In this document: positions 19,581-23,049 of the stretch, piece by piece | How positions within the stretch are numbered: the stretch's first letter is position 1 | Layout of the letters: every line of letters begins with the position of its first letter | Assembly: GCA_036140295.1 (NCBI GenBank) | Contig: JAYZYL010000001.1 | Location: forward strand, 14,163 to 78,162 | Origin: Pseudomonadota bacterium | GTDB taxonomy: Bacteria; Pseudomonadota; Gammaproteobacteria; GCA-002705445; GCA-002716945 | Reading direction: 5' to 3' | Length of the DNA: 64,000 bases | The notes under the pieces: model-generated | Told to the model about the DNA's origin: nothing | Seen by the model: only the letters and a program-made list of their open reading frames with translations | The model's database searches: none | Position numbers and translations under genes: made by a program

Positions 19581-21119
19581 TTATACTCCCCTTTTTTTAT
19601 TTAATGCCAAATCTGGGTTTTGTTGAAGTTTGTTTAGCGCATTTATGAAAGCCAGTATTGATGCTTTAACAATATCAGTATCTGCTCCATGCCCATTAAC
19701 TACATTATTATTTTTTGAAACTCTCACTGTTACTTCTCCAAGCGCATCTGTTCCAGAAGTTATATTGTTGACAGAATAAAGCAATAACTTACATTTACTC
19801 TTTACAATATCTTCAATTGCATTATAGGCAGCATCTACAGCTCCGTCACCTGTACAGCTTGACTCCATATCTTTTCCATCAACTTTTAACTTAACCAAGG
19901 CAGCTGGTTTTTTCCCACTCTCTGTTACTACATTCATATAAGTAAATTTAATATAATTATTTGTAACCTCCTGATTGTTTGAAAGCCTAATTATATCTTC
20001 ATCAAAAATATCATGTTTTTTGTCAGCTAATTCTTTAAATCTAAAGAATATTTCATCTACTTTTTTGTCATCTACTTTAATATTTAATTCATCCAATTTT
20101 TGCCTAAATGCATTTCGCCCTGAGTGTTTGCCAAGTACTAGAGAATTACTAATTAAACCAACATCTTCTGCCCTCATAATTTCATATGTTTCTCTTGATT
20201 TAATAATCCCGTCTTGATGTATACCTGATTCGTGAGCAAATGCATTTTTTCCAACAATAGCTTTATTTGGTTGCACAGGGAAACCTGTAATGCTAGAAAC
20301 CAATCTTGAACATTTCATAATTTTTTTAGTTTTTATGGATGTGTCACATTGAAAAATATCTTGTCGAGTACGAACAGTCATTGCAATTTCTTCTAGTGCA
20401 GCATTTCCTGCCCTTTCCCCTAATCCATTAATTGTGCATTCAACCTGACGCGCACCATTTAAAACAGCCGACAAAGAGTTTCCAACAGCTAATCCTAAAT
20501 CATTATGGCAATGTACTGAAAATATTGCTTTATCAGAATTTTTTACATTCTCTATAATATTTTTAATTAACGCACCAAATTGATGAGGTAAATTATATCC
20601 AACTGTATCTGGTATATTGATAGTTCTTGCTCCAGCATCAATAGCTGCTTCTATTACTGAACATAAAAAACTTAAATCTGAACGCCCTGCATCTTCTGGT
20701 GAAAATTCGACATCATCTGTAAATGTTTTTGCTAGGTTTATTGCTTTAATTGCACATTTTTTAACTTCATCTGGGGACATTCTTAATTTTTTTTCCATAT
20801 GAATTGGAGATGTAGCAATAAATGTATGAATTCTCTTCTTCTTTGCACCTTTAAGTGCATCAGATGCAGCAATAATATCTTTTTCTAATGATCTTGCAAG
20901 GGCACATACAGTAGATTTTGTAATAGATTTCGAGATTTCCCTTACAGCATTAAAGTCGCCTCTGCTTGCTATTGGAAATCCTGCCTCTATAATATCAACA
21001 TTAAGTTCTTCAAGAGCTGAAGCTATTTGGACTTTTTCATCAATATCCATTGACGCCCCGGGGCTCTGTTCCCCATCTCTCAAAGTAGTATCAAAAATGA
21101 TTAATTTTTTGTTCTTCAT
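19581..21119 (-). CDS. leuA: 2-isopropylmalate synthase
   Basis: DTTLRDGEQ, HCHNDLG, GLGERAGN, HESGIHQDG, C-terminal regulatory domain GDGAVDA. Confidence 0.97.
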   Translation of the reverse strand: MKNKKLIIFDTTLRDGEQSPGASMDIDEKVQIASALEELNVDIIEAGFPIASRGDFNAVREISKSITKSTVCALARSLEKDIIAASDALKGAKKKRIHTFIATSPIHMEKKLRMSPDEVKKCAIKAINLAKTFTDDVEFSPEDAGRSDLSFLCSVIEAAIDAGARTINIPDTVGYNLPHQFGALIKNIIENVKNSDKAIFSVHCHNDLGLAVGNSLSAVLNGARQVECTINGLGERAGNAALEEIAMTVRTRQDIFQCDTSIKTKKIMKCSRLVSSITGFPVQPNKAIVGKNAFAHESGIHQDGIIKSRETYEIMRAEDVGLISNSLVLGKHSGRNAFRQKLDELNIKVDDKKVDEIFFRFKELADKKHDIFDEDIIRLSNNQEVTNNYIKFTYMNVVTESGKKPAALVKLKVDGKDMESSCTGDGAVDAAYNAIEDIVKSKCKLLLYSVNNITSGTDALGEVTVRVSKNNNVVNGHGADTDIVKASILAFINALNKLQQNPDLALNKKRGV

Positions 21120-21164
21120 GATTATTAAATTGTAAATTGATAAGTCTTCTGAAGTTATATTGAA

Positions 21165-21224
21165 CTACTTCAGCAGATTGCTTTGCAGGAAATGCAGTAA
21201 CTGTTTTGATATGTTAATTAACAT
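21165..21224 (-). CDS. Candidate leu leader peptide (19 aa, MLINISKQLLHFLQSNLLK)
   Basis: Hand-read uORF ending 45 nt before leuA; 6 of 19 codons are Leu, four of them CTG; a hairpin covers its stop codon. Confidence 0.55.
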   Translation of the reverse strand: MLINISKQLLHFLQSNLLK

Positions 21225-21231
21225 AATACAA

Positions 21232-21259
21232 ACTCTATATTAAAAAAATTTTTTTGCAA
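21232..21259 (-). promoter_or_regulatory. Sigma70-like promoter TTGCAA-N16-TAGAGT for the leader/leuA
   Basis: -35 at 21254-21259, -10 at 21232-21237; the uORF ATG is 7 nt after the -10. Confidence 0.5.
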
Positions 21260-21262
21260 GTA

Positions 21263-23049
<1,787 letters not shown>

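Follow-up and report, generated by a model that had tools for sequence, protein, structure and literature searches.

A leucine-rich reading frame lies directly upstream of leuA

The DNA analyzed here is a 64-kb stretch (the window) of contig JAYZYL010000001.1, part of a 701-kb assembly (77% complete, 31% GC) of an AT-rich gammaproteobacterium from a family of abundant uncultured marine bacteria. Roughly 96% of the window is coding, and the 143-nucleotide (nt) gap in front of leuA, which a first-pass annotation had picked out as one of the longest, is the fourth longest stretch free of open reading frames (ORFs). The same annotation proposed that the gap holds a leucine-sensing leader peptide, an interpretation that comparative tests among relatives support as a prediction from sequence. 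The presumed regulated gene, leuA (19581 to 21119; this and all other window features below are on the minus strand), encodes a 2-isopropylmalate synthase of 512 amino acids that matches the profiles NF002087 (810 bits) and TIGR00973 (707 bits).

Read toward leuA, the gap begins with a −35-like hexamer, TTGCAA (21254 to 21259), located 4 nt past the stop codon of pssA and separated by a 16-nt spacer from a −10-like hexamer, TAGAGT (21232 to 21237), whose support is its conservation. A leader ORF encoding MLINISKQLLHFLQSNLLK (21165 to 21224) starts with an ATG 7 nt past the −10 box and consists of 19 codons plus a TAG stop (ATG TTA ATT AAC ATA TCA AAA CAG TTA CTG CAT TTC CTG CAA AGC AAT CTG CTG AAG TAG). 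Six of the 19 codons specify leucine, four of them as CTG, and the tandem CTG CTG near the end (21171 to 21176) is the presumed stalling site, based on its rarity and conservation. The second CTG opens the 5′ arm of a hairpin (21149 to 21173) with the form CTGAAGT, 11 nt, ACTTCAG; the arms occupy 21173 to 21167 and 21155 to 21149, and the TAG stop straddles the end of the 5′ arm and the loop. Between the ORF and leuA lies a 45-nt G-poor spacer (21120 to 21164; 7 C and 2 G) with a TTTAC motif at 21136 to 21132. The promoter hexamers, the ATG, the 19-codon ORF, the tandem CTG, and the 7-bp stem are all where the first-pass annotation had placed them.

Three further points of that annotation could be examined in the genome itself. 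CTG, which had been expected to be uncommon, is the rarest leucine codon (3.8% of leucine codons and 3.7 per 1,000 codons), and CTG-CTG occurs in frame 11 times among 211,446 codon pairs; the codon frequencies and the start statistics are based on 634 crude gene calls. No terminator-like site is present between 20800 and 21600, as had been suggested. The absence of a Shine-Dalgarno (SD) sequence before leuA was likewise borne out, and it is normal for this genome because about 78% of the crude gene calls also lack one.

A single sequence of this kind is unconvincing by itself. In the window, the hairpin alone is marginal (P = 0.04 when its 3′ half is dinucleotide shuffled), folding of the entire 163-nt region is on a par with that of shuffled sequence (z = −0.09), and the promoter is weak. 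The case for a functional leader therefore rests on its conservation in relatives.

The leader is conserved across five genera and in marine metagenomes

The host family contains 37 species genomes of about 1 Mb each, divided among six genera designated g1 to g6; designations beginning with L refer to individual leuA loci or contigs. All 23 leuA loci from g1, g2, g3, g4, and g6 have the same arrangement, in which a −35 box is followed by an ATG at a fixed offset, a short ORF, and then leuA. The TTGCA of the −35 box is invariant in these 23 genomes, and so is the position of the leader ORF. The ORF is 19 to 24 codons long, or 12 codons in two g2 genomes with a 1-nt deletion, and it ends 21 to 50 nt before leuA, or 60 nt in the two truncated cases. 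The peptides finish in LL-x-L or LLL close to the stop codon; for example, the final residues are HLLKLSK in g1, VLLLKLVK in g3, VLLELISL in g4, GLLKLPL in g2, and GLLSL in g6.

Leucine is preserved at these positions through synonymous codons, with arrangements such as CTT CTA CTG, TTG CTG TTA, and TTA TTG TTA. The tandem CTG CTG itself is retained in g1, g4, and most of g6, and synonymous leucine variants are found in g3, g2, and L019. Among single-base codon differences outside the hairpin, 32% are synonymous in the frame of the leader, versus 22% and 20% when either of the other frames is read. A coding signature is thus present, though modest.

Spacing within the promoter region points to where transcription may begin. 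In all 23 genomes the ATG lies 34 to 35 nt after the first base of the −35 box and 6 to 7 nt after the −10 box. The −10 sequence is TA[G/A/C]AGT in g1 to g4 and TATTAT in g6, with the spacing unchanged. Constant ATG spacing in g6 despite a TATTAT box argues that the constraint is to have the ATG at the transcription start. This spacing predicts a leaderless or almost leaderless leuA transcript, starting at the ATG of the leader ORF or 1 nt before it. The first 14 nt of the ORF, ATGTTAATTAACAT (21211 to 21224), are also a perfect palindrome. A role for it as an operator was rejected; the palindrome is absent from relatives and probably arose by chance in AT-rich DNA.

A metagenome scan using the promoter-to-ATG pattern recovered 41 marine contigs, every one of which had an ORF of 12 to 24 codons followed by leuA. 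Forty of these ORFs are leucine rich at the 3′ end; the exception, L159, has 12 codons and a single leucine. Lineages beyond the genome set are represented, including leaders with final residues SLLLG and CLLKLS. Codons 9 to 12 of g2 and g4 leaders (e.g., ATT AAT CAC CTC TTT in L013) show a separate pattern, a conserved peptide motif I-N-H-[LF]-[FL] encoded by AAUCACCUCUUU, which resembles the universal 3′ end of 16S rRNA, GAUCACCUCCUU, and is thus an anti-SD mimic.

A hairpin around the leader stop codon covaries between lineages

Consensus folding (RNAalifold, with the 23 leaders aligned by MAFFT) returned zero pairs, with the 3′ arms out of register between genera, and was replaced by a codon-anchored table and an arm-swapping test. 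When positions were numbered from the second tandem leucine codon, 21 of the 23 genomes had offsets 0 to 8 base paired to sequence farther downstream. Changes on both sides of a pair, such as CG/TA, GC/AT, and TA/CG, occurred at six of the nine paired offsets (0, 2, 3, 4, 5, and 6). In the swap test, cognate arms averaged −5.0 kcal/mol and noncognate arms −2.6 kcal/mol. For the window, its own arms gave −6.9 kcal/mol against a median of −2.5 kcal/mol with foreign arms, and 5% of foreign 3′ segments did as well.

The sequences of the paired arms differ between lineages, with CUGAAGU/ACUUCAG in the window, CUGAAAUUA/UAAUUUCAG in g3, UGAGCU/AGCUCA in L019, and both UUAAAACU/AGUUUUAA and UAGAACUA/UAGUUCUA in g2. 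Across lineages the leader stop codon is situated in the hairpin loop or the 3′ arm. The leader hairpin is a conserved structure. With these compensatory changes, and with the frame and the leucine codons kept across the five genera and the metagenomic contigs, the parts of the first-pass reading that depended on relatives have held.

The putative sensor is specific to leuA in this genome

A strict search of the whole window genome for a promoter followed by a short ORF found leuA and one unrelated match, making leuA the sole amino acid gene preceded by such an element. The other match to the search pattern (a promoter, an ATG 5 to 8 nt on, and a short ORF) is on the minus strand of contig C8 (offset 46520 of the reverse complement), where the ORF is MIYFRIRVLLKYFLKTF. 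It does not precede an amino acid gene and may be the miscalled start of a longer gene. No leader ORF was found upstream of ilvI or upstream of leuC. A looser genome scan for leader ORFs gave no information, as most upstream ORFs fall within neighboring genes. Within the window genome, the putative sensor is specific to leuA.

The surrounding genes are codirectional with leuA. Upstream are ilvI, ilvH, ilvC, and pssA, the last of which (21263 to 22033) is directly 5′ of the leader, and downstream are a family-4 uracil-DNA glycosylase gene and rimI. The leuC-leuD pair is far from leuA, on the minus strand of contig C7 (96826 to 98223), directly behind the chorismate synthase gene aroC with an 18-nt gap.

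Together, these comparisons make it likely that a leucine-sensing leader ORF controls leuA, whatever the output step. The alternative without a sensor is that the product of the ORF is a small hydrophobic protein with a function of its own, or that nothing more than a promoter and 5′ untranslated region is conserved, the leucine codons being a by-product of an RNA stem composed of YUR triplets. A motif at the N terminus, such as MIKSISIINH[LF][FL], is kept within genera, as a functional protein would predict, but it is not conserved between genera. Transitions in UUR and CUR codons are synonymous, so leucine persistence is partly automatic, and three g2 loci (L010, L112, and L159) have the hairpin without an in-frame leucine block. 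Against this alternative, the element always stands directly before leuA and nowhere else in the genome, the rarest leucine codon is used in tandem, and GC-rich relatives have runs of three to six mixed leucine codons at the same place. A nonsensor explanation is accordingly considered very improbable.

Several observations count against the sensor or its details and have to be set beside this evidence. The promoter in the window has 8 of 12 consensus positions by our own count, which is a weak match below the scan threshold of 9, and consensus matches occur at chance frequency in DNA this AT rich. The scan of 20800 to 21600 found no terminator between pssA and the leader; transcription might read through from pssA, and the leader ORF would then be internal and not leaderless. 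The 12 loci examined from g5 have no leader and instead have a short gap and a TATAAT promoter. In the g4 type, the hairpin is differently placed, being centered on the tandem leucine codons (AUAGUUCU-loop-AGAACUAU). In L010, L112, and L159, a 1-nt deletion converting TTTTTA to TTTTA truncates the ORF to 12 codons (MIKSISIIDILF followed by a stop) before the leucine block, yet the hairpin and spacer are retained; these leaders could represent a decaying sensor or one that works differently. The remaining difficulties concern Rho as the output. The spacer of 21 to 60 nt is short for a Rho loading site (rut), the excess of C over G in the leader is partly due to codons for hydrophobic residues and is measured over a stretch that includes the hairpin, and the hairpin is unnecessary for Rho loading and would lower it, leaving the best-conserved RNA feature unexplained by a Rho-dependent output. 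A role for the hairpin in RNA polymerase pausing is possible.

Candidate outputs of leucine sensing

Some output mechanisms could be set aside. There is no room for an intrinsic terminator in a 45-nt spacer, spacers in the family (21 to 60 nt) lack a consistent U tract, and canonical terminators are not above the level of shuffled sequence in the surrounding 20 kb. Sequestration of the leuA start by the leucine codon segment was rejected, with a median P of 0.51 and only 1 of 23 genomes below 0.05, which excludes the mechanisms of the mycobacterial poly-Cys leaders and the actinobacterial LEU element. Frameshifting, readthrough, and fusion are excluded as well, because none of the alternative frames stays open consistently between the leucine codons and leuA and because leuA may be in frame 0, 1, or 2 relative to the leader ORF. 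The TTTAC motif of the spacer reappears 8 to 20 nt upstream of leuA in other genera. TTTACC was considered as a second promoter or ribosome-binding motif and rejected, as TTACC occurs upstream of genes in the window genome 4 times versus 8.7 expected.

The output weakly favored here, as a tentative choice, is Rho-dependent attenuation similar to that of the tna operon, relieved by a stalled ribosome. Rho is above its curated cutoff in 35 of the 37 family genomes, including that of the window. Leaders have more C than G in 23 of 23 cases (16% versus 9%), whereas genic sense strands show more G than C, and the spacers of these leaders alone contain 137 C and 61 G. In GC-rich relatives with leucine-run leaders, the first 50 nt past the leader stop together contain 356 C versus 229 G, and some betaproteobacterial loci have plain C tracts. 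The model builds on these observations and on the conserved promoter spacing, frame, leucine codons, and hairpin, together with the lack of a terminator; from them we infer where transcription starts, that the ORF is translated, that ribosomes stall on it, and that the output depends on Rho.

In this model, the conserved sigma-70-type promoter would set the start of transcription at the leader ATG or 1 nt before it. When leucine is ample, the ribosome would complete the ORF and depart, leaving bare a leader of about 105 nt with more C than G. The SD-less leuA start, which is sequestered in some lineages, would be engaged slowly, and Rho could load and end transcription early in leuA. When charged Leu-tRNA is scarce, a ribosome would stall on CTG CTG, hold the 5′ arm of the hairpin in its mRNA channel, and stay on the leader. 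This parked ribosome, with any queued behind it, would mask the C-rich part of the leader so that Rho could not load, allowing full-length leuA mRNA to be made. On later reaching the stop codon, the parked ribosome would melt a helix starting just past the stop, thereby opening leuA.

The same sensor could instead act on translation in the manner of erm and cat leaders, with the hairpin (1:2) competing with a 2:3, and possibly a 3:4, pairing at the leuA start so that ribosome position sets access to the AUG. The 3′ arm of the window hairpin, ACUUCAG, can pair with the leuA start region AUC-AUGAAG (21114 to 21122), and this pairing beats shuffled sequences (P = 0.007, or P = 0.076 with other window limits). 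All five g6 species form an equivalent pairing from different sequences (P = 0.003 to 0.036), and g3 is marginal (P of about 0.08). In the g4 type (L133, L139, L141, L007, L008, and L150), sequence after the stop forms a CUCGU/A(C/U)GAG helix with leuA codons 2 and 3, and a synonymous AAT-to-AAC change in leuA converts a G-U pair in the CUCGU/ACGAG form to G-C, strengthening it. The short spacer, and the precedent of mycobacterial poly-Cys leaders that act on translation, also fit this output.

Several results do not agree with a translational output. In its simple version the sign is wrong, since a ribosome stalled on the leucine codons would free the 3′ arm and close the leuA AUG; the sequestering helices in g6, the g4 type, and the window recall erm and cat attenuation, but a stall at the leucine codons would promote such helices instead of opening them. 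Neither g2 nor the remaining g1 species show the pairing, and a convincing region 4 was not found. Access to the leuA AUG was modeled for a free leader, for a ribosome at the leucine codons, and for a ribosome at the stop, and it changed in no uniform direction over 21 to 23 genomes. Translational control is for these reasons judged somewhat unlikely. Under the Rho model, a ribosome that runs on to the stop and melts the poststop helix would account for the pairing between the 3′ arm and the leuA start.

One g2 sublineage (L011, L125, L128, L009, L145, and L155) has an unusual spacer composed of a run of the pentamers UUUAG, UUUAC, UUAAC, and UUUAA, in other words NAG or NAC triplets spaced by UU. 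Different numbers of copies produce spacers of 40, 50, and 55 nt. The run could be slippage-prone repeat DNA or a multisite protein-binding array.

A third possible output of the same sensor is mRNA stability. A ribosome stalled about 50 nt from a leaderless 5′ end could shield that end, or the AU-rich spacer, from an RNase that depends on the 5′ end, yielding more LeuA under limitation. This would directly explain why the ORF is placed at the predicted 5′ end, and it requires no alternative RNA structure, matching the lack of a uniform one. The conserved hairpin is left unexplained, however, and the precedent for protection by a stalled ribosome, the erythromycin-induced stabilization of ermC mRNA, comes from Firmicutes with RNase J. 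Control through stability is regarded as improbable.

Relation to known leader systems

Of the known proteobacterial leaders, leuL (RF00512) is alike in having a short ORF before leuA, a tandem or run of rare leucine codons, and a 1:2 hairpin with the control codons in its 5′ arm, and both presumably read charged Leu-tRNA through ribosome stalling. The window form differs in having neither a GC-rich terminator with a U tract nor a family-wide antiterminator, the 2:3 pairing being lineage specific. Its ORF begins where transcription is predicted to start instead of following an SD, and its leucine codons are one to six codons from the stop. Rfam 15 returned no matches for the window locus or for 20 GC-rich relatives, and RF00512 was not among the families seen at E values up to 10.

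The E. coli tna operon offers a precedent for Rho-dependent control by a stalled ribosome. There, free tryptophan stalls the ribosome at the stop codon by means of an arrest peptide, and a spacer of about 220 nt contains a defined rut site. Both tna and the leuA leader have a leader ORF (tnaC in tna), no intrinsic terminator, and Rho, and in both a ribosome stalled near the leader end would mask RNA needed by Rho. In the leuA leader, unlike tna, the presumed stall is at hungry leucine codons, the spacer is 21 to 60 nt, and a rut site is deduced from base composition.

Mycobacterial leaderless short ORFs rich in cysteine codons provide a second comparison, in which stalling of the ribosome keeps the downstream ribosome-binding site from being sequestered in a duplex (Canestrari et al. 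2020, bioRxiv 10.1101/834739; Mol Microbiol 114:93). Shared features are a leaderless first cistron (predicted here), a run of cognate codons, no intrinsic terminator, and operon-level control by ribosome pausing (presumed at leuA). They differ in that the segment that a stalled ribosome would cover at leuA is not complementary to the leuA start and the host is an AT-rich gammaproteobacterium with SD sequences before only a minority of its genes.

In the actinobacterial LEU element, a pseudoknot, the leucine codon run and the leuA SD pair to form the base stem (Seliverstov et al. 2005, PMC1262725). The first-pass annotation had drawn a parallel with this element, and the parallel holds loosely. 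A leader ORF with leucine codons before leuA, a conserved RNA structure, and the lack of a terminator are common to both; the base stem is absent in the host family, where pairing of the leucine codons with the leuA start is at chance level (median P = 0.51). Several GC-rich gammaproteobacterial relatives can form such a stem, with the leucine codons also able to pair with the leuA SD.

No description of the form found here was encountered in the literature on proteobacterial attenuators, the LEU element, and leaderless cysteine short ORFs, a comparison to which the 2004 survey by Vitreschak et al. did not belong.

Leucine-run leaders elsewhere in the Gamma- and Betaproteobacteria

Related arrangements extend beyond the family. 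Among 85 other leuA loci of Gamma- and Betaproteobacteria, 22 have an ORF that ends 40 to 200 nt upstream and has a run of at least three leucines in its last nine codons. In gammaproteobacterial lineages, the peptide typically ends in LLLP before the stop, and a hairpin of the form CUGCC(C)-N4-(G)GGCAG with a GNRA-like loop surrounds the stop codon and is followed by a small hairpin, NNCU-GRCG-AGNN. Loci of this type (L025, L028 to L031, L036, L037, L042, L053, and L104) are GC rich, and their second hairpin, 15 to 20 nt on, covaries (UCCU/AGGA, GUCU/AGAC, and CCCC/GGGG). Betaproteobacterial leaders (L035, L045, L054, L056, L057, L060, L079, L090, L095, L100, and L108) end in GLLLR.AR before the stop and have a GCGCG-type stem, a C-rich and G-poor tract (e.g., CCCCCACCCCCCUCCCCC), and then a strong hairpin. 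In some of these betaproteobacterial loci, such as those of Sulfuricella, this last hairpin carries a U tract and resembles a true terminator.

The AT-rich leaderless form probably belongs with a class-wide leuA leader, as a derived and shortened version of it. A more general proposal, which is doubtful at present, is that a leucine run plus a single hairpin enclosing the stop codon is a self-sufficient attenuator without a terminator, old and widespread at leuA in the Gamma- and Betaproteobacteria and comprising the LLLP, LLLR.AR, and AT-rich leaderless types. If true, such an element would rely solely on where the ribosome stands, with Rho masking or coupling as the means, and not on a textbook pair of terminator and antiterminator. 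Rfam has no entry for the related motif that many Gamma- and Betaproteobacteria have at leuA.

Implications for streamlined marine bacteria

Textbook leader peptide attenuation requires an intrinsic terminator and tight kinetic coupling. The family described here appears to keep a stripped-down attenuator within 140 nt, made up of a promoter, a mini-ORF, rare leucine codons, and one hairpin. The locus would provide a compact natural system for terminator-free switching by a stalled ribosome, and its retention in these abundant uncultured marine bacteria suggests that ribosome-based amino acid sensing survives extreme genome streamlining.

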